Source: Candidatus Aminicenantes bacterium (GTDB lineage Bacteria; Acidobacteriota; Aminicenantia; Aminicenantales; Saccharicenantaceae). Taken from it: DNA of 64,000 nt. The stretch is from assembly GCA_017999365.1 (NCBI GenBank), contig JAGNLW010000001.1, positions 130,239 through 194,238 on the forward strand, in the 5' to 3' direction. The position numbers were made by a program, and so were the translations under genes. Positions 2,461 to 53,815 of this stretch are shown here, one piece after another. Positions within the stretch are counted from its first letter, which is position 1. Each line of letters starts with the position of its first letter. The notes under the pieces were generated by a model. That model made no database searches and had not been told where the DNA came from. It saw only the letters and a list, made by a program, of their open reading frames with translations.

Positions 2461-4635
2461 CTCCGGGCGGTGGTCGAGGACGCGCAGCACGGCCTCGGCC
2501 GCGGCGCCGTTGCCCCAGTCGTAGATCGTGAACACGCCCATGCCTTCGCCCTCGGGGCTGGTCCGGCCGCCGTGCCCGTAGTTCTCCATGGTGAATCCGT
2601 AGTCGGCCGGGCCGAACCACGGGTAGACGCGCTCCCACATGGCCTTGACCTTCGGGTTCTCCGGGCAGTACATCATGACGAAGCCGGCCTCGAGCGCGGC
2701 CAGCCCGCGTTCCCGGAAGGCCGTCTCCCCCGTCGCGTCGGCATAGTCGAGGAAGAGCTCGGCGAACAGGCTCTGGCGCGAGTCGTTCCACTCGCCGTCG
2801 GCGTTCATGACCCCGAAGCCGCCGAGGGCCGGGACGTGGATGAACGGCGGCTGCCAGACCTGCTGGGCCATCGACAGCTCGTCAAGCGTCCGCCGCCCCC
2901 AGTCGAGGTAGAGGGCGCGGCCGGTCGCGCGCCAGGCCGCGAGCAGGGCCTCGGCGGTCCAGAACATCGACAGCGTGTTCTGTTTGTAGAGGGCGTTGCG
3001 CTCGACCGGGCGGTCGAGGTAGCGGTCCTTGCCCCAGGCGCTGCACGACCAGAAGGTCTCGAAATCGAGCCAGCGGCCGCGCGGCACGATGTCCGCGACG
3101 ACTGCGTCGACGGCCCGCAGGGCGGCCGCCCGGAAGCGGGGCTCGCCCGTCATGTCGGCGAGCTTCAACAGGAACGTCGCGCTCAGGCTCGATTCGGGCG
3201 TCCGGTTCATGACCGGACCGGAGGCGTGGGTCTCGGGATGGAGCCAGCCGGGGAAATAGCCGGCCTCGTCCTGGAGGCGCAAGAGGCGCTCGCCGTAGGC
3301 CCGGGCGTAGTCGAGCAGGCGGGCGTCCTTCTCGAGCTCGTCGTGCCAGCGCAGCATGGCGAGGGCGGTCACGCTCATGTCGAGGACGTGGTACCAATCC
3401 GCCGTGATGCCGTGTTCGACGGGCGTGCGGTCGGAGTTCGTCCAGCGGGCCTCGCTCCAGGGCCGGGGCCGGGGCAGCATGCGGCCGTCGACCGGGACCT
3501 CCTCGTTCGGCGTCGCGATGACGGACGGGAACAGGCCGTCGGCGACGGGCGCGGCCAGGGCCAGCTCTTTCGTCATGCGGGCCTTGGCCAGGAGCCCCTC
3601 GTCGAGGGCCGCCCGGGCGTAACGGAACAGGCCCGAGGCGCTCCGCAGGGACGAGAACCAGGCCTGGTTCCAGATCGACAGGGACTCGCGCTGGAACCAC
3701 GGCTCGGGGGAGTTGGGCGACTGGGAGACGTTGACGATGAACTGGGGCGCGCCGACGCGCCGGCCGCCGAGGTCGAACTCCTGCCAGACGAACGGGGCCC
3801 AGCCGCGGAAGGCCCAGTCGTAGGTCCGGCGGACGTAGCTTCGGAGCGGCCCGGGGATGGGCTCGCCCTTCGCGTAGAGCGGGCGGCCCCATCGCGACCA
3901 CAGGAAGGACGCCGCGCCGGCCCAGGGGTCCTTGACGGGCTCGGGGTCGACGGCGGCGGAGATGAAGAAGCCCAATTCGACGCGGCCCGGCCGGAAGACC
4001 TGCCCGGGGACCTTTCTGAAAAGGACGTGCTCCGGGACATCGGTCTTGGACAGGCCGAGGGCCATGGCCCGCTTCGGCGCGTCGAGGTCGAGGAACCAGG
4101 GGTTCTCGGGCCGGGCGCCGACGAGGTCGAGATCGGGGACGACGGTCAGCACGCGCGGGCCGGCCGCGGCGATGAGGGCCGGCGAGCGGAACACGTGTTG
4201 GGCGGCGACGGTACCTTCCTCGGGCGCGAGGTGGGGGGCCCACCACAGCTCGGGCTCGAAGAGGAGGTCGAAGCGGACGGCGAGCTCGTCCTGGGCGGCC
4301 GGGGCTTCGAGGTCCCAGACGAGGCGGACGCGGCGCCAGCCCTTCTCCGGTCCGTCCAGGTCGGCGACGTCGACGCGCGGCGCCCCGGCCGGGCCGAGCG
4401 CGGGCACGGTGAAGGAAACGACGGGCTCGCCGTCGAGGCGCAGCGTGTAGCGGGCTCCGTCGCGGTCGAGGCGCGTCGCGCCGGTCTCGACGGCTCGGCA
4501 GGCCCAGAAGCCGGGAACGGCCGAGAGAAGGACGGCGAGAAGGATAGAAACACAGACGGCACGCGCGGGGTGGGCGTCCACGGAGATGGGTCGGCGGGCG
4601 CGGCGGGCACGGCGTGCGAACCGGGATCCGTTCAT
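2431..4635 (-). CDS. Large secreted hypothetical protein (possible alpha/alpha-toroid glycosidase-like fold; function unknown)
   Basis: ORF 2431..4770, trimmed to the ATG at 4635 that has a GGAGG RBS. The N-terminus MNGSRFARRARRARRP... plus a hydrophobic stretch is signal/TM-like. The protein is 734 aa, non-repetitive and Trp-rich. Confidence 0.6.
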   Translation of the reverse strand: MNGSRFARRARRARRPISVDAHPARAVCVSILLAVLLSAVPGFWACRAVETGATRLDRDGARYTLRLDGEPVVSFTVPALGPAGAPRVDVADLDGPEKGWRRVRLVWDLEAPAAQDELAVRFDLLFEPELWWAPHLAPEEGTVAAQHVFRSPALIAAAGPRVLTVVPDLDLVGARPENPWFLDLDAPKRAMALGLSKTDVPEHVLFRKVPGQVFRPGRVELGFFISAAVDPEPVKDPWAGAASFLWSRWGRPLYAKGEPIPGPLRSYVRRTYDWAFRGWAPFVWQEFDLGGRRVGAPQFIVNVSQSPNSPEPWFQRESLSIWNQAWFSSLRSASGLFRYARAALDEGLLAKARMTKELALAAPVADGLFPSVIATPNEEVPVDGRMLPRPRPWSEARWTNSDRTPVEHGITADWYHVLDMSVTALAMLRWHDELEKDARLLDYARAYGERLLRLQDEAGYFPGWLHPETHASGPVMNRTPESSLSATFLLKLADMTGEPRFRAAALRAVDAVVADIVPRGRWLDFETFWSCSAWGKDRYLDRPVERNALYKQNTLSMFWTAEALLAAWRATGRALYLDWGRRTLDELSMAQQVWQPPFIHVPALGGFGVMNADGEWNDSRQSLFAELFLDYADATGETAFRERGLAALEAGFVMMYCPENPKVKAMWERVYPWFGPADYGFTMENYGHGGRTSPEGEGMGVFTIYDWGNGAAAEAVLRVLDHRPELKSELDPQR

Positions 4636-6163: not shown

Positions 6164-6763
6164 TCAGCTGTCTGAGTCGCCCGAGGACGACGAGCCGGTG
6201 TCGTCGCTCCCCGAACCGGAAGGCTCGTCCGCGTCGGAGGACGAGGAAGAGGACGAGCCGCCCGCGTCATAGTCAGCGCCGGACGAAAGCCCGTCATCGT
6301 CGTCGGACAGCTCCGCGTCGTCGTCCGCCGCGCCGTGGTCGACGAGATGGCCGTCGGCGGGATCGACGACCTGGTCTGCGCCGACCGTGTCGGCCGACGA
6401 TCCGCGTCCCGTGGTGTCGACCGTGTCGATGCGGCCGTCGCCGTCGATGTCGTTGGCGACGCTCTCCGAATAGCCGTCTTGGTCGATGTCGCCGTAATAG
6501 GTGCCGGTGCTCGTCTTGCCGAGCTGGACCTCGACGTCGCCGAGCCCGTCCCCGTCCCGGTCGACCTTGGTCCACAGGCTGGAGCCGTCGCCGCCGCCGC
6601 GGTCCTCGATCTCGACGATGCGGGGCACGACCTCGGGCGGTCCCTCGCCGGCGCCGTCGGCGCTGTCGTCCGCGTCCGTCTCCTCCTCGACCTCCGTCAC
6701 CTTGAGATCGTCCACGGCCGGCGGCTCCTCACGGTCGCGGCCGGTGTCGTCGGGTTCGGCCAT
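6164..6763 (-). CDS. Highly acidic Asp/Ser-rich protein with DxDxDG calcium-binding-like (thrombospondin type-3-like) repeats
   Basis: 199-aa ORF directly downstream of, and co-oriented with, the M48 protease gene. It has repeated DRDGDGLGD / DIDGDGRID motifs and a poly-Ser C-terminus. It has no signal peptide, and the only RBS-like sequence (GAGGAG) abuts the ATG, which is sub-optimal, hence moderate confidence. Confidence 0.4.
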   Translation of the reverse strand: MAEPDDTGRDREEPPAVDDLKVTEVEEETDADDSADGAGEGPPEVVPRIVEIEDRGGGDGSSLWTKVDRDGDGLGDVEVQLGKTSTGTYYGDIDQDGYSESVANDIDGDGRIDTVDTTGRGSSADTVGADQVVDPADGHLVDHGAADDDAELSDDDDGLSSGADYDAGGSSSSSSSDADEPSGSGSDDTGSSSSGDSDS

Positions 6764-6786
6764 GTCGCCCTCCTCGGGGAAAGCCC

Positions 6787-7980
6787 CTACGACTTGGGAT
6801 CGATGCTATCGAGCCTGAGGCGGAACACGCCGCCGCAGGACTTGCAGGGGATGTCGAGCCAGGGTTCGGCGGGCCGGGCGACGAGACGGAACGTGAACGG
6901 GGCCCGGCAGGTCGGGCAGGTGCCCTCGAGGAGGCGGACCTTCGCCCCGGGCGGCGGTGCGGACGGGACGGGACCCGGCGCTTTTTTCGGGGGCCGGAGC
7001 TTCTTCAGGTAGCCCTTCTCGTCGAACAGGCCGTCGAGCGGGGCGCCGCTTCCGGACTCCACCTTCTGCCGGAGGGCCTCGTACGGCGGCGAGGCGGCGA
7101 AGTCGCGCAGCTCGACGAGGCGGCTGCCGAGGTAGGGCGTGGCCGAGGTCATCATCTGGCTGACCTTGGTCATGGTCGGATCCTGGGTCTCGGCCTGGCG
7201 GATCCAGTCGTCGATGTCCATCTCGGCCAGCTCGCGGCGCGAGCGGAGATGGAGCAGGAAGACGGCCCGCTTGGCGACGTCGAAGCCTCCGACGGCCAGC
7301 AGGGCGGCCCGGTCGGCGGTCATGTCGGCCACGCGCATCCAATTGGAGACGGCCGACTCGACGCCGCCTTCGATGACCTTGAGGGGATTGGAGAGGAGTC
7401 CGACGACGCCCTCGGCCATGAGGTTGGACCGCTGTTGACCGACCAGGAACATGCTGGCCGTCGTCCACAGGGCGTGCTGGCTGACGAGGTGGCCGATCTC
7501 GTGGCCGAGGACGAACAGGAGCTCCTCGTCGTTGAGGAAGCGGGGCAGGAAGGCGCCGATGTTGACGAAGGCGTCGTCGTCCGTGCCGTAGGTCGCGGAC
7601 TGGTAGCCGCGGTCGAGCTCGACGTAGAAGGCGGGCAGACGGGGGGCGCCGAGGCGCCGGGCGGCCAGGCGGCCGAGCTCGAGGACGCGGGGATACTGCC
7701 TGTCCGTGGCCAGGATGCTGTTGAAGGTCGATTCGTACCAGGGCTTGCCGATCTTGCGCGACAGGCTCTCGGCCGATTTGCGCAGGACGAGCGAGCCGCG
7801 GAGCATCTGGTTCATCCGCTGCATCGAGGGGTGCTCGAAGTCGCGGGGGTCGAGGGAGAAGGGCGCGGCGGACGGGCCGGGCGGTGGGGCGGCGCCCGCG
7901 GCCGAGGCGAGAGGGGCGCCGCACTGGCCGCAGAAGCGGCCGTGGTCGGGAACGGGAGAGCCGCAGGCGTTGCAGAACAT
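6787..7980 (-). CDS. M48-family zinc metalloprotease (HExxH) flanked by N- and C-terminal zinc-ribbon motifs
   Basis: The active-site motif is LGHEIGHLVSQH. The N-terminus has MFCNACGSPVPDHGRFCGQCG and the C-terminus has CPTCRAPF...CKSCGG, both zinc-ribbon-like. Confidence 0.75.
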   Translation of the reverse strand: MFCNACGSPVPDHGRFCGQCGAPLASAAGAAPPPGPSAAPFSLDPRDFEHPSMQRMNQMLRGSLVLRKSAESLSRKIGKPWYESTFNSILATDRQYPRVLELGRLAARRLGAPRLPAFYVELDRGYQSATYGTDDDAFVNIGAFLPRFLNDEELLFVLGHEIGHLVSQHALWTTASMFLVGQQRSNLMAEGVVGLLSNPLKVIEGGVESAVSNWMRVADMTADRAALLAVGGFDVAKRAVFLLHLRSRRELAEMDIDDWIRQAETQDPTMTKVSQMMTSATPYLGSRLVELRDFAASPPYEALRQKVESGSGAPLDGLFDEKGYLKKLRPPKKAPGPVPSAPPPGAKVRLLEGTCPTCRAPFTFRLVARPAEPWLDIPCKSCGGVFRLRLDSIDPKS

Positions 7981-8148
7981 GTGACCCCGGTGTTACCCGC
8001 TGAATTAGCACACGCGGCAAGGGCAAGTCAAGGCGGGAAGCCGGGAGACGAGGGCGGCACGTTCGGAAAAATGGGCGATCGGGTCTTGTGTCCCCGTTTT
8101 GGCGGGGATAGAATAGCCGGGAACGAACGTTCCGATCGGAGGCTCTCC

Positions 8149-10185
8149 ATGTCCAGGACAAAGACCAACCCGTTCCGTTCCGGGGCGCTCCTCGCTCTTG
8201 TCGTCGCGACGGCGGCGGTGACTGCCTGTAGCCAAGGCGCCGGCGGCAAGGCCCAGGCGCTGTCAGTCGCGTCGCCCGACGGCAGCCTCGCGCTGACGCT
8301 GGCGACGGCCGCCAAACCGAGGCCCTACGCCGAGGGCGAGCGGCTCTATTACCGCGTGACCTACAAGGGCGCGCCGGTCCTCGTCGATTCGCCGCTCGGC
8401 CTCGATCTGCTCGGGGCCCCGGCCCTCGAGCGCGATTTCGAGGTCGTGGGGACGGAAGCGCGGTCGAACGACACGACCTGGGAGAACGCCTTCGGGGCCC
8501 TGCGGACGGTCCCGGACAGGTACAACGAGCTCGTCGTGTCGCTGCGCGAAAAGAACGCGCCGGGGCGGCGGCTCGACGTCGTGCTGCGGGCCTACGACGA
8601 GGGCGTCGCGTTCCGCTACGTCCTGCCGAAGCAGGAGGCCGTCGGCGAGTACGCCCTGGCGGCGGAGTCGACCGGATTCTACTTCGCCGGCGAGACGCGG
8701 GCCCTGGCGCTCGACCTGGGACGCTGGGACACGAGCAACGAGGGGCCGTACGCGTGGACGCCGCTCGCGGCGCTCAAGCCGGCGTCGCTCGTCCACACGC
8801 CGCTTCTCGTCGAGATGCCGGGCGCCGGGTTATGGGCGGCCCTGCTCGAGGCCGACCTGACCGATTACGCGGGGCTCTATGTGGCGGGCGCGGCGGGCGT
8901 GCCCAACGGGCTCGCGGCCCGGCTGGCCGTGCCGCCGCGACGGGCGCTCGACCGGGCGGTCGTGGGGACCGCGCCGCTGCGGACGCCGTGGCGCGTCCTG
9001 ATGGTCGGGACGGACCCGGCCCGGTTCATCGAGCGGAACTACCTCGTGCTCAACCTGAGCGAGCCCTGCGCCGTCGGCGACACATCGTGGATCAAGCCGG
9101 GCAGGGCGGCCTGGGATTGGTGGTCCGGGAGCACCGCGACGGGCGTGAGCTTCAAGCCGGGCATGAACACGGCGACGATGAAGCACTACATCGACTTCGC
9201 GGCCAGGCACGGCCTCGAGTACATGCTCGTCGACGCCGGTTGGGCCCCGATGTCGGAGGACGGCCGGATCGAGGACATCCTGAAGTACCGGCCCGAAGTC
9301 GACATCCCGGCGATCATCGCTTACGGGAAGGCCAAGGGCGTCGAGACCCTGCTTTGGGTCGAGTGGCGGGCCCTCGACCGGGCCATGGACGAGGCCATGG
9401 CGCTCTTCGAGAGGTGGGGCGCGGCGGGCATCAAGGTCGACTACATGAACCGCGACGATCAGGAGATGGTCGCCTATTACGAGAAGGTCTGCCGCAAGGC
9501 CGCCGAGCACCGGCTGACGGTCGATTTCCACGGCGCCTACAAGCCGACGGGGCTGCGGCGGACCTATCCGAACCTGCTGACGCGCGAGGGCGTCATGGGC
9601 CTGGAGTACAGCAAGTGGAGCGAATCCATCACCCCGGAGCACGACGTCAACATCGCCTTCACGCGCATGCTGGCCGGGCCGATGGATTTCACGCCGGGCG
9701 GTTTCCGCAACGCGGCCCGGGGGAAGTTCGAGGCCCGGGACATCGCGCCGATGACGCAGGGGACGCGGGCCCATCAACTGGCCATGTACGTCGTCTACGA
9801 GAGCCCGCTGGTCATGGTCTCCGACTACCCGGAGGCGTACGAAGGGCAGCCGGGGATGGCCTTCATCGAACGCGTCCCGACGGTCTGGGACGAAACGCGC
9901 GTGCTGGCCGGCAAGCCGGGCGAGTTCGTGGTCGTCGCCAGACGTAAGGGCGCCGAGTGGTACGTCGGCGGCCTGACGAACTGGGACGCGCGGGAGGTCG
10001 AGATCGGGTTGGGGTTCCTGGGTGCGGGCGCTTTCGAGGCCGAGATCTTCGCCGACGGTCCCGATGCGGCGACGGAGGGGACAAGTCTGGCGGTCTCGAA
10101 GAAAGCGGTCGCCGCCGCCGACAAGCTGACCCTGCGGCTCGCCCCCGGCGGCGGATTCGCCCTCGGGGTCAGACCCCAGCTTTGA
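8149..10185 (+). CDS. Glycoside hydrolase family 97 (alpha-glucosidase/alpha-galactosidase, SusB-like) lipoprotein
   Basis: Start ATG 8149 after GGAGG. Lipoprotein signal ...AAVTAC. Conserved GH97 core (e.g. ...AGIKVDYMNRDDQEMVAYYEKV..., ...HGAYKPTGLRRTYPN...). About 680 aa, typical size. Confidence 0.85.
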   Translation: MSRTKTNPFRSGALLALVVATAAVTACSQGAGGKAQALSVASPDGSLALTLATAAKPRPYAEGERLYYRVTYKGAPVLVDSPLGLDLLGAPALERDFEVVGTEARSNDTTWENAFGALRTVPDRYNELVVSLREKNAPGRRLDVVLRAYDEGVAFRYVLPKQEAVGEYALAAESTGFYFAGETRALALDLGRWDTSNEGPYAWTPLAALKPASLVHTPLLVEMPGAGLWAALLEADLTDYAGLYVAGAAGVPNGLAARLAVPPRRALDRAVVGTAPLRTPWRVLMVGTDPARFIERNYLVLNLSEPCAVGDTSWIKPGRAAWDWWSGSTATGVSFKPGMNTATMKHYIDFAARHGLEYMLVDAGWAPMSEDGRIEDILKYRPEVDIPAIIAYGKAKGVETLLWVEWRALDRAMDEAMALFERWGAAGIKVDYMNRDDQEMVAYYEKVCRKAAEHRLTVDFHGAYKPTGLRRTYPNLLTREGVMGLEYSKWSESITPEHDVNIAFTRMLAGPMDFTPGGFRNAARGKFEARDIAPMTQGTRAHQLAMYVVYESPLVMVSDYPEAYEGQPGMAFIERVPTVWDETRVLAGKPGEFVVVARRKGAEWYVGGLTNWDAREVEIGLGFLGAGAFEAEIFADGPDAATEGTSLAVSKKAVAAADKLTLRLAPGGGFALGVRPQL

Positions 10186-10408
10186 GAATATAATCAACAG
10201 GTTAAGTCAGAAAAGAGACCTTCTCATCAGCTTGAAACGCATGTTTTTTGGGTTAAAAACATCGAATTTTATCTCAGAGGACCATTTGGCCGGTCAAGAG
10301 GTGAAACGATCCGTTTTTCGGCCCCAAAAAGGTTGTAATTATTGATTGGAGGGTCCTCCATTTTGGGCCCAAGTGTAAGAAAACATTCGAGAAGCTGGGG
10401 TCTGACCC
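10165..10408 (+). mobile_element. MITE-like element copy 1: AT-rich ~244 bp flanked by 18-bp terminal inverted repeats GGGGTCAGACCCCAGCTT / AAGCTGGGGTCTGACCCC
   Basis: Perfect inverted repeats at 10165-10182 and 10391-10408. The interior is much lower in GC than its surroundings and contains internal hairpins (ATGTTTTTTGGGTTAAAAACAT). The left repeat supplies the last codons and stop of the GH97 gene. Confidence 0.6.
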
Positions 10409-10433
10409 CAAGGAGGCCAAGGAGGAGGAGAAG

Positions 10434-12161
10434 ATGACAAAACATGCGATCGCGGTCGGGGGCATCGCCCTCGCTCTGATCATCGTTTCCGTCCCGTCCC
10501 CAGCCGCCGCCACAGACGCCGACATCAAGGCCGCCATCGCGCCGGCCGCGACCGCCAAGCTCGACAGCTGCACGGTCATCGGGGCCGGCCGCCTGGCCAC
10601 CGTCGACGGCTCGGTCATCACCTCGCACTCGGATTGCTGCAGCGAGTGCCGCATCCAGGTCGTCCCCGGCCGGACCTTTCCCAAAGGCGCCATGGCCGAC
10701 GTCCACTGGGGCATGGTCTACTTCGGGGCCGAGGACGACCGCCGCGCCCTGCCCCTCGGCGACTTCGGCAAGGTCATCGGCCGCATCCCCCAGGCCGAGC
10801 GGACCTTCGCCTACTTCCACACCGGCTACTCGCAGATGAACGAGCGCCAGCTGGCCATCGGCGAGAGCACCTGCTCCCAGCGCGCCGAGCTCGACGTCCC
10901 CTACGTCGAGGGCCTGACCCGCCAGATCATGACCGTCGAGCAGGCTCAGGTCTTCGCCCTGCAGCGCTGCTCAACGGCCCGCGAGGCCGTCAAGCTCATC
11001 GGCTCGCTCGTCGAGACCTACGGCTTCCTCCCCTCCTGCGGCGGCTCCGAGGCTCTCTGCGTCGCCGACCCGCGCGAGCTCTGGACGATGGAGATCTGCA
11101 GCGTCGGGCCCGAATGGGCGCCCGGGAGCGGCAAGCCCGGCGCCATCTGGGTGGCCCGCCGCGTCCCCGACGACCACGTCGTCGTCATCGCCAACTATTT
11201 CCGCATCCGGGAGATCGACCTCAAGAGCCCCGACACCCTGGCCTCGCCGAACGTCGTCCGGGAAGCCGTCGACCGCGGCTGGTACGATCCCAAGAGTGGC
11301 CGGCCGTTCGTCTGGCAGGAGGCCTACGCCCCGCCCGTCCGCGAGGGCAACCTCAGCCGGATGTGGCTCGTCACCAGCACCCTGGCCCCGAACCTCAAAG
11401 CCTGGCCGAAGCGGGCCCTCAAGGACGCCGCCGGGCCAGGGACGATCTACGCCCAGCCGTTCGAAGGCGCCGCGTTCTACCCCTGGTCGTTCAAGCCGGA
11501 GCGCAAGATCGGCGTCCGGGACGTCATCGCCTTCCAGCGCTCGGCCTTCGAGGAGACGGTCTACGACATGACCTGGGACCCGGCCTGGATGGTCCCGGCC
11601 GGGGGCGGGCGCATGGAGAAAAGCCCGATGGCCTCGCCCTTCATCTCGGCCGAGATGGAGAAGGTCCTGCGCGTCCGGCACCACCGGACGATCGCCACCC
11701 AGGGCTACGGGATGGTCGCCCAGTTGCGGTCCTGGCTCCCGGACGCGGTCGGCGGCATCTACTGGTTCTACGTCGACAACCCTTCCGTCAGCCCCTATGT
11801 CCCGGTCTACGCCGGCGTGACCGACGTCTCCCCGTTCTACAAGACGTACGACTTCCGCGAGTTCAGCGAGGATTCGGCGCGCTGGGCCGTGGACTTCGTC
11901 GAGAAGCTTATGCTGCTGCGCTGGCAGCCGGCCATGCGCGACGTCCGGGCCGCCCGCGACCCCGTCGAGGCCGCGTTCTTCGACGAGCAGGCCGCCGTGG
12001 ATGCCAAGGTCGCGGCGCTCCTGGAGGGGGGCGCCGGCGGGCGCGCCGCCGCCGCGGACTACCTGACCAGCCTGACGGTCGAGCGGATGGAGAAGCTCGT
12101 GGCCCTCTACCGCTCGCTCCGCAAGACCTTGCTCGCGAAGTACTCCGGCGACGGCGTCTGA
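10434..12161 (+). CDS. Peptidase family C69 dipeptidase (secreted)
   Basis: Signal peptide, then the DSCTVIGAG motif where the Cys is the nucleophile after signal cleavage. Size and family-wide motifs fit C69. A strong AAGGAGGAGGAG RBS precedes the start. Confidence 0.85.
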   Translation: MTKHAIAVGGIALALIIVSVPSPAAATDADIKAAIAPAATAKLDSCTVIGAGRLATVDGSVITSHSDCCSECRIQVVPGRTFPKGAMADVHWGMVYFGAEDDRRALPLGDFGKVIGRIPQAERTFAYFHTGYSQMNERQLAIGESTCSQRAELDVPYVEGLTRQIMTVEQAQVFALQRCSTAREAVKLIGSLVETYGFLPSCGGSEALCVADPRELWTMEICSVGPEWAPGSGKPGAIWVARRVPDDHVVVIANYFRIREIDLKSPDTLASPNVVREAVDRGWYDPKSGRPFVWQEAYAPPVREGNLSRMWLVTSTLAPNLKAWPKRALKDAAGPGTIYAQPFEGAAFYPWSFKPERKIGVRDVIAFQRSAFEETVYDMTWDPAWMVPAGGGRMEKSPMASPFISAEMEKVLRVRHHRTIATQGYGMVAQLRSWLPDAVGGIYWFYVDNPSVSPYVPVYAGVTDVSPFYKTYDFREFSEDSARWAVDFVEKLMLLRWQPAMRDVRAARDPVEAAFFDEQAAVDAKVAALLEGGAGGRAAAADYLTSLTVERMEKLVALYRSLRKTLLAKYSGDGV

Positions 12162-12209
12162 GCCGGCGACAGGGCCGATCCGCCGGGAGCGGTCCCGGCC
12201 GTCCGGGGC

Positions 12210-12992
12210 TTAGCGCCCGAAGCCTTTGACCTTCTTGTAGCCGGCCGGCAGGTCGTAGTGGCCCGCGGGGGCGGCCTTCTCCGTGCATTCGAGGAGCTCG
12301 GTCGTGGACTTCATCTCCTGGCCCATGACCTTGGCCACGGTCGTCTGGTAGACGACGACGCCCTTGATCTTCTTCATCTCGGCCAGGATCTTGTCGAAAC
12401 CGGGCATCGAGGCCATCATGCCGTTGGCCATGGCGAAGGCCATGGTGTAGTCGACCTTGATGTCCTCGGTGGCCCAGGCGTCGCCGCTGGTCTTGCCCAT
12501 GCCGCCCATGTCGATCTCGAGGGTGTAGCGGCGGGCGTTCCAGCTGCCGATCTTCTTGGTCTCGCCGGTGTCGGTGACCTTGGCCGACATCCCGCCCATG
12601 AGGCCCTTCATCATCCCGGCCATGGCCTTGGCCTGGGCCTTGTCCTCCTCGTCCCCGCCGGCCTCGTCGGCCGCCGCGTCGAACATCTTGCCGAAATCGA
12701 GGGGCATCTCGGAGTACGACTTCTTGTTGTGGTCGATCATGTAGAGCATCTTCTTGTCGGCTTGGAAGATCATCGAGGTGTTGGCCCCCTCCTGGTCCGT
12801 GCGGGCCTTGTTGTCGCCCATCCAGAAGACCATGATCTCGTCCTTGGCCGGCTGGGACTGGCCCATCATCGTGAAGGCGTCGGTGTGGGTCTTGTTCTTC
12901 ATGTAGACGTCGGCCCGGGCCTGCGCCGTCGAGAGGACGAGACAGGCAAGGACGGCGAGAAAGGCGATGCGGATCAGGCGGGATGATCTCAT
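12210..12992 (-). CDS. Secreted Met/Lys-rich protein of unknown function (DUF4412-like, uncertain)
   Basis: Clear signal peptide (MRSSRLIRIAFLAVLACLVLSTAQA). Native-looking composition (K/M/D-rich, unlike the R-rich antisense junk). Met-rich segment AMAGMMKGLMGGM. Confidence 0.6.
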   Translation of the reverse strand: MRSSRLIRIAFLAVLACLVLSTAQARADVYMKNKTHTDAFTMMGQSQPAKDEIMVFWMGDNKARTDQEGANTSMIFQADKKMLYMIDHNKKSYSEMPLDFGKMFDAAADEAGGDEEDKAQAKAMAGMMKGLMGGMSAKVTDTGETKKIGSWNARRYTLEIDMGGMGKTSGDAWATEDIKVDYTMAFAMANGMMASMPGFDKILAEMKKIKGVVVYQTTVAKVMGQEMKSTTELLECTEKAAPAGHYDLPAGYKKVKGFGR

Positions 12993-13091
12993 ATTGACCT
13001 CGCTTGGGGTGTGGGTTTCCGGCGCCCCGGCGCCGTGATTCCTTTATAATGCGCCCTCCCGGCATCTGTCAAGCAACCGGGAAGCAACCGG

Positions 13092-13314
13092 GGGGTCAGA
13101 CCCCAGCTTTTCAAAAAGAATCAACAGGATAACCCCATTTCGGACAGGTCCCATCAGTTTGAAGCTCACTTTTTTGGGCCCAAAAACATCATGCGCCTTC
13201 CCAACGAAATAAGGCTATGTTTTGGGGCACAAAAACGTGAGATCAAAGCTGAAGGCGGATCCCCAAAATGGGGGTATGTTACTGATTAAATTGGAGAAGC
13301 TGGGGTCTGACCCC
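13092..13314 (+). mobile_element. MITE-like element copy 2, same orientation and the same terminal inverted repeats as copy 1
   Basis: GGGGTCAGACCCCAGCTT at 13092-13109 and AAGCTGGGGTCTGACCCC at 13297-13314. Shared internal blocks with copy 1 (AATCAACAGG, TTTTTTGGG..AAAAACATC, TTGGAGAAGCTGG). The palindrome TTTTTGGGCCCAAAAA is internal. The element abuts the nitroreductase stop. Confidence 0.6.
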
Positions 13315-13317
13315 CGA

Positions 13318-13908
13318 CTAGTAACTGTTCCAATGGAGGACGGCCGACAGGGGGCGCTTGGGGACATGAAGGCGGCCGGCTTCGTCCTTCCAGTAGCGGC
13401 AGCTGTCGGCCATGACCTCGGCCGCCGGCTCCTCGGCCGGATACCCCAGCGCCAGGACGCTGTCGATGCGGTACCCGTCGGGCACGCCAAGCACGCCCTT
13501 GAGCTTCTCGCGGTCGATCGACAGCAGCCAGCAGGCCCCGACCCCCTCGGCCAGCGCCGTCAGGATCATATTCTCCATGGCCGCGCCGACGTCGTACTCG
13601 AACATCTTTTCGCGCAGCATCGAGTCGACGAGCGTCACGACGTAGGCCGCCGGTTCCTCCCCCGTCTTCGGGTCCCCCGCCGGCGCGATGTAGGCCGCCC
13701 ACTTGAGGCACGGGAAGACCTCGGCCGCCCGCGCCGGATCGTCCACCACGACGAAGGAGAGCGGCTGGACGTTGGCCGCCGAAGGCGCCAGCCGGGCCGT
13801 CTCGACCAGCCGCGTCAGCAGCTCCCGCGGCACCGGCCCCGGCCGGAACCGGCGGATGGTCCGCCGCGCCACCGCGAGATCGTAAACGTTCTGTCCGTTC
13901 TGACCCAT
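13318..13908 (-). CDS. Nitroreductase-family protein
   Basis: The nitroreductase fold signature is present (...VARRTIRRFRP...LAPSAANVQPLSFVVV...). Start trimmed to ATG 13908, which has an AAGGAG RBS (track ORF extends to 13962). Confidence 0.8.
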   Translation of the reverse strand: MGQNGQNVYDLAVARRTIRRFRPGPVPRELLTRLVETARLAPSAANVQPLSFVVVDDPARAAEVFPCLKWAAYIAPAGDPKTGEEPAAYVVTLVDSMLREKMFEYDVGAAMENMILTALAEGVGACWLLSIDREKLKGVLGVPDGYRIDSVLALGYPAEEPAAEVMADSCRYWKDEAGRLHVPKRPLSAVLHWNSY

Positions 13909-27192: not shown

Positions 27193-27765
27193 GTGATGCG
27201 CAACACCGCCGTTATCACCATCATCGCCCTCGCCGCCGCCCTCGGTCTCACGGCCGGCCCGGCCCTCGCCGCCCAGGAGGAGGGGCACGTCGTCGAGGTC
27301 AAGAGCCTCGTCTCCCGCGAAGCCGTCCGCCCCGGCGAGACCTTCCAGGCCGCCGTCCTCGTCACGGTCCAGGCGGGCTACCACATCAACGACAACGCCC
27401 CCGTCGACGAGTTCATGATCCCGACCGTCCTGACGGTCCTGGAGGCCCCGGACTTCGAGGTCCTCGAGACCTACTATCCCGTCGGCCGCCGGGCCCGTTT
27501 CTCCTACTCCGAGGTCGAACTCGTCGTCTACGAAGGGGAGACGGCCCTCGGCCTCCTGCTCAAGGCCAAGGACGGCATCGCGCCCGGCCCCCGGACCGTC
27601 AAGGTCTCCCTCGGCTACCAGGCCTGCGACGCCATGTCGTGCCTGCCGCCCAAGGAGCTGGCCTTCGAGATCGCCGTCCCCGTCGCGGCCGACGGCGCCG
27701 CGCCCGCCGCCGACGTCAAGCCCGAGGTCTTCAAAAAGCTCCGCTTCAAGTCCCTGAAAAAATGA
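27193..27765 (+). CDS. DsbD N-terminal (alpha) domain-like periplasmic thiol-disulfide protein
   Basis: Signal peptide. YHINDNAP and LGYQACDAMSCLPPKE closely resemble the E. coli DsbD-alpha cysteine pair region (..YQGCADAGFCYPPE..). Start at GTG 27193 or ATG 27196. Confidence 0.65.
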   Translation: MMRNTAVITIIALAAALGLTAGPALAAQEEGHVVEVKSLVSREAVRPGETFQAAVLVTVQAGYHINDNAPVDEFMIPTVLTVLEAPDFEVLETYYPVGRRARFSYSEVELVVYEGETALGLLLKAKDGIAPGPRTVKVSLGYQACDAMSCLPPKELAFEIAVPVAADGAAPAADVKPEVFKKLRFKSLKK

Positions 27766-29180
27766 CGGACGAATCGAGACAAGCCCTCTTCCGCGCCATC
27801 CCGTCCCTCGACGCCCTGCTGTCCTCCGAGGCCGCCGCCCCGCTCCTGGCCGCCCACGGCCGCGAGGCCGTCGTCGCCGCCGGACGGGCCGTCCTCGACG
27901 ACCTGCGCGCCGGGATCGCCGCGAATGCCGCGCCCGACGACCTGTCGCTCCCCGCCCTGGCCGCCCGCGTCGCCGGCCGCCTGGCCTCCCGCCTGGCCCC
28001 CTCCCTCGCCCCCGCCATCAACGCCACCGGCGTCATCATGCACTCCGGCCTCGGCCGGGCCGTGCTCCCGCCCGCCGCGTGCGGAGCCCTCGGCGCCGTC
28101 GCCGCCGGCTACTCGACCCTGGCCCTCGACCTCGACTCCGGCAAGCGCGTCCCCCGCGACCGCCACGTCGAGGGCCTCCTCCGCGATCTCACCGGAGCCG
28201 AAGCAGTCACCGTCGCCAACAACAACGCCGCCGCGACCGTCCTCATCCTCGACACCATGGCCCGCGGCAAAGAGGTCGTCGTCTCGCGCGGCCAGCTCGT
28301 CGAGATCGGCGGCTCCTTCCGCATGCCCGACGTCATGGCCTCAAGCGGCGCCGTCCTGCGCGAGGTCGGCACGACCAACAAGACCCACCTCCGCGACTAC
28401 GAGGCCGCCCTGTCCCCCGCCACCGGGGCCATCCTCCGCGTCCACCACAGCAACTACCGCATCCTCGGCTTCGCCGAGGAGCCCCCCATCGAGGACCTCG
28501 TCGCCCTCGGCCGCTCCCGCGGCGTCCCGGTCATCGACGACCTCGGCAGCGGAGCCCTGGTCGACCTCGCGCGCTACGGCCTGGCCGGCGAGCCCCTGGT
28601 CCGGGCCAGCTTGGCCGCCGGCGCCGACGTCGCCTGCTTCAGCGGCGACAAGCTCATCGGCGGTCCCCAGTGCGGCATCATCGCCGGCCGCACCGAGTGG
28701 ATCCAGCGTATCCGTAAGAATCCTCTGGCCCGGGCCTTCCGCTGCGGCAAGCTGACCCTGGCCGCCCTCGAAGCGACCCTCAAGCTCTTCCTGGACCCCG
28801 ACCGGCTGGCCGAACGCCATCCCATCTACCGCATGTTCGCCCTCACGCCCGGCGAACTCGCCCGCCGGGCCGAAGCCATGGCCGCCTCCCTCCGCGAAGT
28901 CCTGCCGGCCGCCGTCGCGGTCGCCGTCGTCGACGCCGAGTCCCAAGTGGGCAGCGGCGCCGTCCCCGTCGAGACCATGCCCTCGAAGGCCCTGTCCATC
29001 CGCGCCGCCCGCCTCCCCGCCGAGGACCTGGCCCGCCGCCTGCGCCGCGGCGCGCCGCCCGTCTTCGCCCGCGTCCACCGCGACGCCGTTCTCTTCGACC
29101 TGCGCACGGTCCAGCCCGGCCAGGAGGCCGCCCTCCGGGCCGCGCTCGCCGCGATCCTCCAAGATGAAAAAAACAAATAG
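27762..29180 (+). CDS. selA: L-seryl-tRNA(Sec) selenium transferase (selenocysteine synthase)
   Basis: PLP-lysine motif FSGDKLIGGPQCG (SelA FSGDKLLGGPQAG). 472 aa. Start overlaps the upstream stop (ATGA). Confidence 0.9.
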   Translation: MTDESRQALFRAIPSLDALLSSEAAAPLLAAHGREAVVAAGRAVLDDLRAGIAANAAPDDLSLPALAARVAGRLASRLAPSLAPAINATGVIMHSGLGRAVLPPAACGALGAVAAGYSTLALDLDSGKRVPRDRHVEGLLRDLTGAEAVTVANNNAAATVLILDTMARGKEVVVSRGQLVEIGGSFRMPDVMASSGAVLREVGTTNKTHLRDYEAALSPATGAILRVHHSNYRILGFAEEPPIEDLVALGRSRGVPVIDDLGSGALVDLARYGLAGEPLVRASLAAGADVACFSGDKLIGGPQCGIIAGRTEWIQRIRKNPLARAFRCGKLTLAALEATLKLFLDPDRLAERHPIYRMFALTPGELARRAEAMAASLREVLPAAVAVAVVDAESQVGSGAVPVETMPSKALSIRAARLPAEDLARRLRRGAPPVFARVHRDAVLFDLRTVQPGQEAALRAALAAILQDEKNK

Positions 29181-30405
29181 GAACGGCCCCGTTTCTCGGG
29201 CCTTCTTCGAGAGGCGCAAGCGCGTCATGGGGCGGTCCATCGCCCTCGGCCATTGCATCTGCAACCCCAAGGACCCCTGCCCCTGCGACCTCTTCAAACA
29301 GAAGAACGTCTGTCTCTGCGCCGGCGAGCGCGAGGCCGACGCCCCCGACGACGTCGCCCTGACCACTCTCGTCGAGAACGCCGGCTGCGCCTCAAAGATC
29401 GGCCAGGAGGACCTCAAGCGGGCCCTCGCCGGCCTGCCGCGCACCTTCGACCGCCGCGTCCTCGTCTCCTCGGACACCTGCGACGACGCCGGCGTCTACG
29501 CCCTGACCCCGCGCACGGCCCTCGTCCAGTCGGTCGACGTCTTCACCCCCGTCGTCGACGACGCCTACGCCTTCGGCGAGATCGCCGCCGCCAACTCCCT
29601 CAGCGACATCTACGCCATGGGCGGCCGCCCCCTGACGGCCCTGTCCATCGTCGCCTTCCCCATCGAGCGCCTCAGCCCGCGCCTCATGAACCGCATGCTC
29701 CAGGGCGGCGTCGACAAGCTCCGCGAAGCGGGCGTGGCCCTCCTCGGCGGCCACAGCATCAAGGACCGCGAGATCAAGTTCGGTTTCGCCGTGACCGGCG
29801 TCGTCGACCCCCGCCGCATGACCGTGAACAACCGCGCCAAGCCCGGCGACGTTCTCGTCCTGACCAAGCCCCTCGGCACGGGCACGCTGAGCTTCGCCCG
29901 CCAGATCGGCCGGGCCCCGGCCGACGGCCTGGCCGCCGCCGAGCTCTCCATGCGCGCCCTCAACAAGGCCGCCGCCGCCCTCTTACCGGCCTTCCGCGTC
30001 ACCACGGCCACCGACATCACCGGCTTCGGCCTGGCCGGCCACCTCGGCGAGATCGCCGCCCAGAGCCGAGTCGACATCGAGGTCTTCGGCGCCTCCCTCC
30101 CCGTCTTCCCCGGCGTCCTCGAGCTCATCCGCGCCGGGGTCGTCTCGGGCGCCGTCGAGCGCAATCGCGAATACGCCTCGTCCTTCGTCCGGCGCGCCGA
30201 TCTGACCGTCCCCGAGGAGCTCGAGACGCTCCTCTACGACCCCCAGACCTCGGGCGGCCTGCTCGTCGCCGTCCGCCCCTCGCGGGCCGCGGCTTTCCTC
30301 TCCGCCCTCGGCCGCGCCGGCGTCCCGGCCGCCGCCATCGTCGGACGCGTCACCCGCAAGTCCGCCAAGCCCCGCATCGTCCTCCGCGCCGCCGCCCCGC
30401 GCTGA
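29164..30405 (+). CDS. selD: Selenide, water dikinase (selenophosphate synthetase), Cys-type, with Cys-rich N-terminal extension
   Basis: Core ...LTTLVENAGCASKIG... aligns to E. coli SelD ...LTQYSHGAGCGCKI... (Cys rather than Sec at the active-site position). The AIR-synthase-like fold blocks are present. A ~50-aa N-terminal extension with HCICNPKDPCPCDLFKQKNVCLCAGE precedes the core. Alternative start ATG 29227. Confidence 0.9.
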   Translation: MKKTNRNGPVSRAFFERRKRVMGRSIALGHCICNPKDPCPCDLFKQKNVCLCAGEREADAPDDVALTTLVENAGCASKIGQEDLKRALAGLPRTFDRRVLVSSDTCDDAGVYALTPRTALVQSVDVFTPVVDDAYAFGEIAAANSLSDIYAMGGRPLTALSIVAFPIERLSPRLMNRMLQGGVDKLREAGVALLGGHSIKDREIKFGFAVTGVVDPRRMTVNNRAKPGDVLVLTKPLGTGTLSFARQIGRAPADGLAAAELSMRALNKAAAALLPAFRVTTATDITGFGLAGHLGEIAAQSRVDIEVFGASLPVFPGVLELIRAGVVSGAVERNREYASSFVRRADLTVPEELETLLYDPQTSGGLLVAVRPSRAAAFLSALGRAGVPAAAIVGRVTRKSAKPRIVLRAAAPR

Positions 30406-30410
30406 CCGCC

Positions 30411-32342
30411 ATGGCCGAGCTCGACCACGTCATCGTCGGCACGGCCGGGCACATCGACCACGGCAAGAGCGCCCTCGTCCGGGCCCTGACCGGCACCGAC
30501 CCCGACACGCTGCCCGAGGAAAAGGCCCGCGGCATGACCATCGAGCTGGGCTTCGTCTTCCTCGACGACCCGGGCTACCCGAAGCAGATCGTCTTCATCG
30601 ACGTCCCCGGCCACGAGCGCTTCGTCAAGACCATGGCCGCCGGAGCCAGCCACGTCGACGCCGCCCTCCTGGTCGTCGCCGCCGACGAGGGCCTGGCCGT
30701 CCAGACCCGCGAGCATTTCGACATCCTGACCCTCCTCGGCATCGAGCACGGGCTCATCGCCCTGACCAAGAGCGACCTCGTCGACGGGGACCGCGTTGCC
30801 GAGCTCACGGCGTCCGTCCGCGCCTTCGTCCGCGGCTCGTTCCTGGAGAGCGCGCCCATCCTCGCCGTCTCCGCCCTCACCGGCGCCGGCCTCCCGGAGC
30901 TCAAAGCCGCGCTCCAGGCCATCGGCCGCCGCGTCCGCCCCCGGCCCGACAGCGGCGTCTTCCGCATGCCCGTCGACCGCGTCTTCACCATGCACGGCTT
31001 CGGCACGGTCGTCGCCGGCACCGTCCTCTCGGGCACGGTCCGGGCCGGCGACCGCGTCGAGATCTTTCCCGAAGGCCTGAAAAGCCGCGTTCGCGGCGTC
31101 CAAGTCCACGGCTCCAAGGCCGACGTCTCGGGGGTCGGGCGCCGCACGGCCCTCAACCTCCAGGACCTGGCCAAGGAGGATCTCCGCCGCGGCCAGGTCG
31201 CCGCCGCCGAAGGCTCGCTCGTCCCGACGGCGCGCCTCGACGCCCGCCTCGACGTCCTGGCCGACGCCCCCCGCGAGGTCAAGCACCGCGACCGGGTCCG
31301 GCTCCACATCGGGACCGACGAGGTCATGGCCCGGCTCGCCGTCATCGGCGGGCCGTCCGTCGCCCCCGGCGCCTCCTCCCCCGTCCAGCTCGTCCTCGAA
31401 CGGCCGGCCGTGGCCCTGCCCGGCGACCGCTTCGTCATCCGTTCCTTCTCGCCCGTCCTGACCGTCGGCGGAGGCCTCGTCCTCGACGCCGCGCCCGAGA
31501 AACACAAGCGCTTCAGCGGCCGGGTCCTCGAGGGGCTGGGCAAGCTCGGCGGGCCGGCCCGCGAGGCCGTCGACCAGATGTTCGCCCAGGCCGGCGGCAT
31601 CCCCCGGACCGCCTCCGACATCGCCCTCAAGCTCGGCCGGGCCGAAGCCGACGTCGCCGAGGCCGTCGCCGCGCTCGCCGCCGAGGGCGCGCTCGTCGCC
31701 GTCGGCGAGGGCCAGCCCGAGCGCTACCTCCACCGGTCCGTCCGCGACGAGCTGGCCGCCGGGCTCGTCGACGGCCTCAAGGCCTATTTCGCCGCGAATC
31801 CCTACAAGCCGGCCATGCCCTACTCCGATCTCCGCGCCGCTTTTCTCGGCAAAAGCGACGCCGCCGGCCTCAAGCACGTCCTCGACTCCCTCCTCGCCTC
31901 GGGCGCGCTCTTCCGCAAGGACGCCGGCGTCGGCCTCACCGGCCGCGAGGTCGCGGCCGACCCCGTCGAGGCCGAGCGCCGCGCCCGCGTCGCCGGGGCC
32001 TATGCCTCGGCCCGGTTCTCCGCCCCGCTCGAGGACGACGTCCGCCTCTCCCTCAAGCTCAATCCCTCGGCGTTCGAGCCCGTCCTCAACGCCCTGCTCC
32101 GCGACGGCACGCTCGTCCGGCTGGCGCCCAAGGTCGTCTATCACCGCGACACGGTCGAGGCCGCCCGCTTGGCCGTGGCCGGCCTCATCGAGCGGCGCGG
32201 CTCGGTCTCCATCGCCGAGCTCCGCGACCGCCTGGCGCTCTCCCGCAAGTACGCCCAGGCCATCCTGGAATATTTCGACAAGACCGGCTTCACCAAGCGC
32301 GTCGGCGACCGTCACGTCGCGGGCGCGCGCCCCGCCCGCTGA
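30411..32342 (+). CDS. selB: Selenocysteine-specific translation elongation factor
   Basis: GTPase motifs GHIDHGKS, DVPGHERF and TKSD. EF-Tu-like domains II/III are followed by a long C-terminal winged-helix extension (mRNA/SECIS binding). 643 aa. Confidence 0.9.
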   Translation: MAELDHVIVGTAGHIDHGKSALVRALTGTDPDTLPEEKARGMTIELGFVFLDDPGYPKQIVFIDVPGHERFVKTMAAGASHVDAALLVVAADEGLAVQTREHFDILTLLGIEHGLIALTKSDLVDGDRVAELTASVRAFVRGSFLESAPILAVSALTGAGLPELKAALQAIGRRVRPRPDSGVFRMPVDRVFTMHGFGTVVAGTVLSGTVRAGDRVEIFPEGLKSRVRGVQVHGSKADVSGVGRRTALNLQDLAKEDLRRGQVAAAEGSLVPTARLDARLDVLADAPREVKHRDRVRLHIGTDEVMARLAVIGGPSVAPGASSPVQLVLERPAVALPGDRFVIRSFSPVLTVGGGLVLDAAPEKHKRFSGRVLEGLGKLGGPAREAVDQMFAQAGGIPRTASDIALKLGRAEADVAEAVAALAAEGALVAVGEGQPERYLHRSVRDELAAGLVDGLKAYFAANPYKPAMPYSDLRAAFLGKSDAAGLKHVLDSLLASGALFRKDAGVGLTGREVAADPVEAERRARVAGAYASARFSAPLEDDVRLSLKLNPSAFEPVLNALLRDGTLVRLAPKVVYHRDTVEAARLAVAGLIERRGSVSIAELRDRLALSRKYAQAILEYFDKTGFTKRVGDRHVAGARPAR

Positions 32343-36150: not shown

Positions 36151-36311
36151 CGTCCCCTTCGTTGACCCGGCCGCCGGATTCTCTTATAATCCGTCCGGGT
36201 GCACGGGGCAATGAGGCCCCGCGCAGGTTATCGCCTCACGGGTGGTCGGGCCGCCATCCTTATCGTCCCGGAACGCCTCCCCGGCGTTCGGGGCGCCGAT
36301 AGGGAGTCGCC

Positions 36312-41170: not shown

Positions 41171-41265
41171 GGGAGGGTGAAGGATCCGGTGATCCTTCCG
41201 GACTTCAAATCCGGTATGGGGCTATAAACGTCCCGGATGGGTTCGACTCCCATACCTTCCCGCCA
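41171..41265 (+). tRNA. selC: tRNA-Sec (anticodon UCA)
   Basis: 95 nt. 8-bp acceptor stem GGGAGGGU/ACCUUCCC (one G-U), 6-bp D-stem AGGAUC/GAUCCU with 4-nt loop, anticodon stem CCGGA/UCCGG with loop CUUCAAA (UCA), long variable arm GGGGC-UAUAAAC-GUCCC, 5-bp T-stem AUGGG/CCCAU with loop UUCGACU, discriminator G and an encoded CCA. This is the bacterial 8/5 tRNA-Sec architecture. Confidence 0.85.
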
Positions 41266-52232: not shown

Positions 52233-52652
52233 TCAGTTCTTCCGGGCCTCGATGTCCTGGCGGAGCAGGCGGACGGCCTCGGCCAAGTCGACCTGGGGCG
52301 GGAAGACCCGGTCGAAGCCCATGGCCTTGAACTTCCGCTCGACCTCCTCGAAGGGGGTCTTGCCGACGACGAGGTTGCCGCCGGCGTAGAGCAGGACCGA
52401 CTCCAGGCCGCGCTCGACGGCCTTCTGGCGCAGGCCCTCGCAATCGATGAGGCCGTGGCCGTAGAGCGAAGAGACCAGGATGGCCTTGGCGTCCGACTCG
52501 ACGGCGGCGTCCAGGAACTCGTCCTGGCTGACCATGACGCCGAGGTTGACGACGTGGAAGCCGGCCTCCGTGAAGTAGGCGTCGAGGATCTTGTTGCCGA
52601 CCGAGTGGCAGTCGGCCCCGATGACGCCCAGGACGATGCGCGGGGCGTCCAT
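52233..52652 (-). CDS. glmS: Glutamate mutase sigma (S, B12-binding) subunit
   Basis: 139 aa. RIVLGVIGADCHSVGNKIL is the cobalamin-binding DxHxxG region of MutS/GlmS. Confidence 0.9.
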   Translation of the reverse strand: MDAPRIVLGVIGADCHSVGNKILDAYFTEAGFHVVNLGVMVSQDEFLDAAVESDAKAILVSSLYGHGLIDCEGLRQKAVERGLESVLLYAGGNLVVGKTPFEEVERKFKAMGFDRVFPPQVDLAEAVRLLRQDIEARKN

Positions 52653-53656: not shown

Positions 53657-53668
53657 GCTTACTCCTTA

Positions 53669-53798: not shown

Positions 53799-53815
53799 GA
53801 GGGGGAGGGAATGTC

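Follow-up and report, generated by a model that had tools for sequence, protein, structure and literature searches.

The window analysed here is the whole 64,000-nt stretch of contig JAGNLW010000001.1 from a Candidatus Aminicenantes bacterium, and positions are counted from its first letter. It contains two short AT-rich elements with perfect inverted ends. The first (copy 1) stands between a GH97 gene and a C69 dipeptidase gene, and the second (copy 2) between a gene for a secreted DUF4412 protein and a nitroreductase gene; the C69 and DUF4412 genes lie in the interval that the two elements bracket. Pfam matches confirm all four gene identities; a first-pass annotation, made from the letters alone, had named the DUF4412 product as a secreted Met-rich protein. 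That annotation described the elements as MITE-like (resembling miniature inverted-repeat transposable elements) and considered a composite mobilisable unit, independent insertions, and a regulatory or terminator function. Most probably, the elements are old insertions of a repeat family linked to a Y1/HUH transposase.

The two elements and their repeat unit

The 18-nt sequence GGGGTCAGACCCCAGCTT has exactly four sites in the window, which form two inverted pairs, one per element; none of 100 shuffled windows held four matches with up to three mismatches allowed. The extent of copy 2 and the perfect inverted ends are as first annotated, and copy 1 proves to end at 10409 instead of 10408 (Table 1). 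Both elements are islands of 43-44% G+C in a window of 70% G+C, and their interiors are 61% identical to each other, in agreement with the earlier description of AT-rich, hairpin-rich interiors about 60% similar. Each is a long imperfect palindrome (the arms of copy 2 are 99 nt long and 75% complementary) and folds strongly as single-stranded DNA, with z-scores of -6.3 and -10.4 for the two. This shape and fold arise because each element consists of two inverted units.

The repeated entity, recognised from copies collected from relatives, is a unit of ~105 nt, and an element is a head-to-head doublet of it. The unit comprises, in order, a nearly invariant 21-nt end, GGGGTCAGACCCCAGCTTCTC, which begins GGGGTCAG; an AT-rich ATCA-N6-TA block; ~30 variable nt; and an inner motif, ATTTCGATGTTTTT-N5-8-AAAAA, whose spacer is G+C-rich. 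Unit statistics are based on 95 non-redundant units from loci gathered via exact end matches, and 78 of these carry the inner motif. Some units stand alone (singlets, ~105-110 nt) and others form doublets of 223-252 bp. No GTAG tag is present at the unit ends or in their flanks. The inner T-run/A-run motif was considered as a conserved stem and rejected, its flanking bases not being consistently complementary. The ATCA-N6-TA block resembles the consensus WATCAANNNNTTR of integration host factor (IHF), with a strict match at one fixed position in 8/95 units and a background rate of 1 in 13,680; a putative IHF site here is a lead only, since strict matches are few.

Selection for the long hairpin was also rejected. 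Arm identity is 0.63 within a doublet versus 0.61 between elements (maximum between elements 0.835), so that arms are no more alike within than between elements, and pairing decays: a mirror-pair analysis of copy 2 against its orthologue in an 89% identical relative gave 1 compensatory pair and 17 breaks.

In the 64-kb window the unit profile picks out exactly four units, whether or not it includes the 21-nt end, and no degenerate extra units appeared in this search. The only other AT-rich island of the window, at 53660-53810, lies between a divergent open reading frame (ORF) at 52652-53656 (-) and a 1552-aa ORF at 53816-58474 (+). As a candidate family member it was rejected, having no end motif and being unrelated.

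Table 1. Coordinates of the elements, their parts, the bracketed genes and the junction duplications (window positions unless a retrieved locus, L, is named)
Feature	Position	Strand	Evidence and remarks
Copy 1, 245-bp inverted doublet	10165..10409		Between GH97 gene end and C69 dipeptidase start; exact ends, two unit-profile matches
Copy 1, left unit, ~104 nt	10165..10268	+	nhmmer E=3.6e-16; 18-nt end at 10165-10182
Copy 1, left unit, inner motif	10244..10259		T-run/G+C-rich spacer/A-run, TTTTTTGGGTTAAAAA
Copy 1, right unit, ~102 nt	10308..10409	-	nhmmer E=1.4e-17; 18-nt end at 10392-10409
Copy 1, right unit, inner motif	10314-10330
Copy 2, 223-bp inverted doublet	13092..13314		Between DUF4412 gene start and nitroreductase stop; exact ends
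Copy 2, left unit	13092..13194	+	nhmmer E=4.8e-19; 18-nt end at 13092-13109
Copy 2, left unit, inner motif	13170-13186
Copy 2, right unit	13211..13314	-	nhmmer E=5.8e-20; 18-nt end at 13297-13314
Copy 2, right unit, inner motif	13220-13235
Junction duplication, CCAAGGAGG x2	10408..10425	+	Includes the last two bases of copy 1 and the ribosome-binding site of the C69 gene
Junction duplication, AAGCAACCGGG x2	13071..13092	+	Second copy includes the first G of copy 2
Further junction duplications	L059 ~1060-1100; L001 ~7410-7448; L073; L026 7955-7990
C69 dipeptidase	10434..12161	+	Bracketed host gene, outside the elements; Pfam PF03577, E=2.6e-43
DUF4412 secreted protein	12210..12992	-	Bracketed host gene, outside the elements; Pfam PF14371

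Family members and the Y1/HUH transposase gene

The repeats form a dispersed family, with dozens of units in the window's own genome and in relatives. The window is 99.8-100% identical to parts of a 2.27-Mb JGI contig, Ga0302251_1000001, and the 21-mer end matches 31 metagenome loci, including at least 18 exact matches on that contig, of which the stretches retrieved hold at least 30 units. A metagenome-assembled genome (MAG), CAZFZU01, which is ~89% identical to the window, has the exact 18-mer in 17 retrieved loci. Most other family members are solitary, and units stand in both orientations, also at convergent gene ends. Among the 38 loci with the 18-mer in other genomes, most hold one core palindrome or one adjacent pair; these look like chance matches or unrelated repeats and were not accepted as family, the exceptions being L026 and a few multi-copy loci. 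Named SelA and C69 homologues of the window's proteins belong to Candidatus Aminicenantes/Acidobacteriota, at 70-81% identity, and so indicate a host of this lineage; the community it comes from is probably that of an anaerobic digester or bioreactor.

Several GGGGTC[A/T]GACCCC palindromes per 5-8 kb occur in L032, L038 and L048 (Marinobacter, Pseudomonadota MAG), and these sets may be independent repeat families on the same core. Many 100-nt runs of N adjoin family units in the CAZFZU01 and CAZFBC01 records (L001-L054, L087), which suggests that the repeats break assemblies.

An ORF of 282-283 aa lies between inverted units in the MAG (L015 6194-7352, ORF 6253-7104) and in the window's own genome (L083 2350-3515, ORF 2608-3456). 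Its product matches Pfam Y1_Tnp and, over the full model length, NCBIfam REP_Tyr_transpos (E=5.5e-18). NHVH and Y-x3-N are invariant in 41 homologues, and the protein carries FWEDR (a WE motif). Of the signature of subclass 2.1 of this class of enzymes (NHVH / W[EQ] / Y[IV]xLNP and a C-terminal HTH-like domain) the first two motifs fit, and the Y motif, YVDMNM, deviates. Pfam finds no helix-turn-helix domain in it, and HTH_23 matches 1/41 homologues. A PDB search with the single sequence gave no match, and a profile search had E. coli TnpA-REP (4ER8) as best match, with 16% sequence identity. The AlphaFold model (pLDDT 81, pTM 0.80) likewise has 4ER8 as its top fold match (TM 0.70), ahead of IS608 and ISDra2 TnpA. 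Between the two genomes the identity of the catalytic core is 93-94%, and codon-position identities of 87/93/77% indicate purifying selection. Identity falls to 47% in a low-confidence loop (residues 69-105) that separates the HUH motif from the Tyr motif.

The transposase gene adjoins the tag glycosylase gene in L015, L083, L087, L088 and L089, the proteins being 54-100% identical, and on the basis of this synteny it appears to have been inherited vertically. Relatives with a transposase 54-64% identical again have doublet-forming repeats on both sides of the gene, there with the variant ends GGGGTCGGACCTC or GGGGTCGGACCAC, and a distant homologue in L026, from another MAG, is flanked by GGGTCAGACCC(C)AGCTT. 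Because the end variants track the transposase lineage, enzyme and ends go and diverge together. The association of this gene with the family's ends extends over five lineages.

Junctions, element-free sites and conserved ends

The GH97 ORF (7249-10185) ends GGG GTC AGA CCC CAG CTT TGA. The stop occupies 10183-10185, and the six codons before it are thus supplied by copy 1's left end; the GH97_C Pfam match stops at residue 972/978 of the protein. The right end of copy 2 and the nitroreductase stop (13318-13320, minus strand) are 3 nt apart, and AAGGAGG, the ribosome-binding site of the C69 gene, follows copy 1 directly. All three junctions had been read in this way in the first-pass annotation. 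Close contact with gene ends is common in the family: a gene stop is 0-3 nt away from 31/88 outer ends and falls inside the element at 13/88 (counting stops of gene-like ORFs). The 5' flank is biased: 59% of units have T at -2 and 60% have C at -1, and A at -1 is seen in 1/95. Among 24 doublets there is no target-site duplication of k=2-9 at offset 0 and none of k>=3 at offsets 0-3; the sole matches are 3 at k=2, offset 1, where 1.8 are expected.

Copy 1 occupies the same site in relatives 89%, 98% and 100% identical, and more distant relatives have element-free sites. In L092 the GH97-C69 junction consists of the GH97 stop, 16 nt and the C69 start, and no element interrupts the DUF4412-nitroreductase junction of L090, L091 or L092. 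Because these more distant relatives have empty sites, the comparison identifies both window copies as insertions, older than the split from the ~89% identical relative. At the GH97-C69 junctions of L090 and L091 there are doublets with variant ends, and since their interior identity to copy 1 (0.54-0.58) is only that of the background, these doublets fit shared descent with copy 1 as well as repeated insertion.

Elements have changed in place. In the 98% relative, copy 1 (L059 931-1079) has lost 96 bp of its right-half interior and kept both 18-nt ends. Another site holds a singlet in the MAG (L031 7155-7263) and a doublet in the window's genome (L062 12255-12498); half-elements can therefore be gained or lost on their own. 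In the window's genome the centre of a further doublet is occupied by an IS630-family insertion (L057 397-1560; 371-aa DDE transposase, ORF 443-1558), and the orthologue of that doublet is intact in L006 and L060.

The four ends in the window match those in the 89% relative at 71/72 positions; identity is 74-75% for the interiors and 85-87% for third codon positions of neighbouring genes. With one end taken as ascertained, 54 positions remain, and the probability that no more than one of them changed is 3e-6 to 3e-3. By this measure constraint acts on the ends but not on the interiors.

The junctions show a further feature. One-sided tandem duplications of 8-19 nt across the flank/end junction are present at 12/95 ends versus 2/362 control windows (Fisher p=2e-7), and they usually take in the element's first bases. 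Both window copies have one (Table 1). The duplication at the copy 1 junction is absent in the 89% relative, and the 98% relative (L059) has a different one of 19 nt; at the copy 2 junction the 89% relative has a different, 14-nt duplication. Duplications of this sort also stand beside the transposase gene of L026, L087 and L088. Possible causes are slippage at the palindrome, or nicks at the ends that are then repaired. A bolder idea, which we regard as speculative and rather improbable, is that the ends are not inert relics and are processed in place by the tyrosine transposase, through repeated nicking and repair or re-copying. It fits the junction duplications, because these differ among relatives 89%, 98% and 100% identical, and it fits the ends themselves, because they are near-invariant at fixed sites yet change with the transposase across lineages. 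If true, in-place processing would amount to a domesticated genome-wide system at gene 3' ends, and the junction duplications would be the sequence footprint of a so far unstudied TIRYT reaction.

Interpretation, known systems and other features of the window

TIRYTs are described by Di Nocera et al. 2013 (PMC3733652) as RAYT-like genes with long inverted repeats that replace GTAG REPs, the units being TIRtrons; their TIRs share GGGGWSAS, moderately abundant families occur as dimers or clusters, and Acidobacteria have a distinct group. Quentin et al. 2018 (PMC6006769) equate most TIRYTs with TnpA-Y1 subclass 2.1. We conclude, with a probability of about 0.8, that the window elements are non-autonomous inverted-repeat doublets linked to a Y1/HUH transposase (RAYT-like, TIRYT-type), present as old, independent, fixed insertions. 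The dispersed copies, the transposase gene with the same ends in five lineages, the lack of target duplications and the empty sites all speak for this, and of the possibilities raised at first it is that of independent insertions of a non-autonomous multi-copy element that holds. The kind is already described (RAYT/TIRYT-associated repeats, REPIN/TIR repeats) and is here found in an uncultured Aminicenantes-like bacterium.

In the proposed mechanism the units would be non-autonomous partners of a TIRYT-type transposase encoded elsewhere on the same chromosome, between inverted units. A transposase gene between inverted units is a TIRtron, and a doublet is therefore structurally a TIRtron without the gene. 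Y1/HUH enzymes cut and rejoin single-stranded DNA. The transposase would act in trans on the unit ends and insert units beside 5'-(T)C without duplicating the target, and copies would survive chiefly in the last codons of genes or a few bases after them, where the AT-rich interior would soon supply a new stop codon. The window copies themselves are older than an ~11% nucleotide divergence, and each is independent both of the other copy and of the two bracketed genes.

Several points weigh against this explanation. No TIRYT is known from experiment to move its repeats, and the trans-mobilisation step is inferred. The copies are only ~60% alike in their interiors, with no near-identical recent copies, and all orthologous sites examined are occupied in relatives 89-100% identical; current activity is unproven because the copies are old and neither recent copies nor insertion polymorphism is seen. 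The counts of doublets, flanks and gene stops given above take in orthologous copies from related genomes, which leaves roughly half of them independent, and the loci were gathered through exact end matches. As for the enzyme, its REP_Tyr_transpos score of 65 is below the curated cut-off of 80, its Y motif, YVDMNM, deviates from the Y-x3-NP of class 2, and one copy was found among all the DNA retrieved, which covers part of the genome. The 13-nt palindrome at the unit end makes only a weak hairpin (-4.2 kcal/mol), and in sister lineages its variants fold no better than shuffles and position 12 varies uncompensated, which makes canonical REP-hairpin recognition doubtful.

Among the rivals, a host-level role is unlikely without being far-fetched, and it is compatible with transposase-linked doublets. 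The elements would serve in cis, for instance as an RNA hairpin at the 3' end, to stabilise or insulate the mRNA, or as a site where protein binds or DNA bends. Selection on the host would keep the units, above all their invariant 21-nt ends directly behind stop codons, the transposase link being historical or for maintenance. The near-identity of the ends, with the low chance of so few changes given above, would fit this, as would the half of outer ends at or within 3 nt of a stop codon, the occupation of every orthologous site examined in 89-98% relatives, the IHF-like block and the conserved T-run/A-run motif. The elements hold, however, no canonical intrinsic terminator or sigma-70 promoter: a promoter/terminator scan found no promoter-like site within them and no terminator-like hairpin at their ends. 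No Rfam family matches them either. The long hairpin decays, relatives have the same junctions without elements, and the 98% relative has lost 96 bp of copy 1. Conservation of the ends is also expected if a transposase recognises intact ends only, and its estimate is partly ascertained by the search. The regulatory or terminator function suggested at first has no direct support, and it is the conservation of ends at fixed sites that leaves room for a host-level role. That the elements encode a structured non-coding RNA gene or a riboswitch-like leader is highly improbable. The strong predicted folding and the position of elements upstream of gene starts would suit such an RNA, but the fold is explained by two inverted units and has no covariation support, units stand in both orientations and at convergent gene ends, and interiors are poorly conserved; Rfam gave nothing in the elements, neither in a region scan at E<=10 nor in the whole window at gathering thresholds.

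Small, AT-rich, multi-copy elements with perfect terminal inverted repeats, in a genome that also holds an IS630-family element, could be taken for classical MITEs, that is, internally deleted DDE insertion sequences moved by cut-and-paste of double-stranded DNA. This is very unlikely, since the 24 doublets have no 2-9-nt target-site duplication at offsets 0-3 beyond chance-level k=2 matches, the sole gene ever found between these ends is the Y1/HUH transposase, and the IS630 copy is merely inserted in a doublet, its own ends being unrelated. From the label MITE-like, then, the small non-autonomous repeat stands, and the enzyme becomes Y1/HUH instead of DDE and the unit one of ~105 nt. The composite transposon, in which the two copies jointly move the C69 and DUF4412 genes, has the bracketing of two genes by two same-family elements in its favour and is otherwise close to untenable. 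Each copy has its own complete end pair, and most other family members are solitary. The ancestral gene order GH97-C69-...-DUF4412-nitroreductase is kept in L090-L092 without copy 2, and in L092 also without copy 1. The C69 gene has 70% G+C, the same as the rest of the window, and the G+C content of the bracketed genes, overall and at third codon positions, equals the genome's values. The supposed block is moreover not constant, as L091 (5272-7315) and L092 (5286-7323) have a fur-like regulator gene and a catalase gene between C69 and DUF4412, where the window has nothing.

Transposase-linked doublets of the kind favoured here share several traits with the TIRtrons and TIRYTs of PMC3733652: a RAYT-like Y1/HUH gene between long inverted repeats without a GT[AG]G tag, ends whose start, GGGGTCAG, fits GGGGWSAS, a moderately abundant family of singles, dimers and clusters, a host of the Acidobacteria lineage, and a long protein of 282 aa that carries NHVH and WE motifs and is extended at its C-terminus. 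The differences are the YVDMNM motif in place of the Y[IV]xLNP of subclass 2.1 (a comparison by motif) and a ~105-nt module with a second conserved inner motif beyond the terminal repeat. In addition, the gene is syntenic beside tag and the ends co-vary with it, a REPIN-RAYT-like behaviour that is not reported for TIRYTs in the available parts of PMC3733652 and PMC6006769. Around subclass 2.1 genes, Quentin et al. (PMC6006769) report that no REP-like repeats were found.

REPIN-RAYT systems (Bertels & Rainey 2011, PMC3116915; Bertels et al. 2017, PMC5581495) also have inverted doublets able to form a long hairpin, a transposase flanked by the same repeats, and vertical inheritance of gene and repeat positions. 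Extragenic location at gene ends is a further likeness. Pseudomonas REPINs are about 100 bp long, and the doublets here, at 223-252 bp, are longer. Here, unlike in REPINs, the 13-nt terminal palindrome lacks a GTAG foot and does not persist as a hairpin in sister lineages, the copies are ~60% alike with no cloud of near-identical sequences, and there is no compensatory hairpin evolution. The E. coli REP/BIME and TnpA-REP system (4ER8; PMC3479197) provides the closest solved fold and sequence-profile match. Its repeats also lie downstream of coding regions, and it differs in that TnpA-REP has 165 aa and recognises a GTAG-tagged hairpin, whereas the family here has a 5'-TC flank and a much longer unit. 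Some BIMEs carry an IHF site beside the terminal palindrome, a possible parallel to the ATCA-N6-TA block that is a lead only. With IS200/IS605 the family shares the Y1/HUH fold and the absence of target-site duplication. IS200/IS605 elements insert next to a short specific sequence, and here there is just a 5'-TC flank preference; their ends are asymmetric subterminal hairpins without terminal inverted repeats, whereas the flanks here are symmetric inverted units. They are multi-copy, near-identical within a genome and often accompanied by tnpB, according to Quentin et al. (PMC6006769). At the transposase loci here, one gene copy and no tnpB are seen.

In the full-text literature searched, the term TIRYT is confined to two bioinformatic surveys, the one that described these genes and the one that re-classified them, no TIRYT biochemistry was found, and nothing was found that links Aminicenantes with transposases and repetitive elements. 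The locus is a clean, well-bounded TIRYT-type example: its unit is defined, the cognate gene keeps its chromosomal position, the end variants are specific to lineages, relatives have empty sites, and the family follows a clear placement rule (a 5'-TC flank, at a stop codon or no more than 3 nt from one). It could be used as a model for the handling of terminal inverted repeats instead of REP hairpins by a Y1 transposase, for the way repeats rewrite gene 3' ends (here the last codons of GH97 are replaced), and perhaps for REPIN-like long-term coexistence dynamics outside Proteobacteria. For annotation, the family explains recurrent AT-rich islands, and probably assembly breaks, in these high-G+C MAGs.

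Other features of the window lie apart from the elements. A putative selenocysteine gene set (27762-32342) has SelA, by homology, as its first ORF, a middle ORF at 29164-30405, and a third ORF that is SelB-like by its N-terminal GTPase motif only; downstream of the set is a tRNA-Sec gene (41171-41265; Rfam 76.5 bits, ARAGORN anticodon TCA). The ORF at 41339-42997 contains at least five direct repeats of ~219 nt, 60-77% identical (41691-42955), which suggests a repeat-domain (propeller-like) secreted protein. An nhaA-I RNA motif (RF03057; 53.2 bits, above the gathering score) is found at 36197-36259, upstream of the ORF at 36312-37991.

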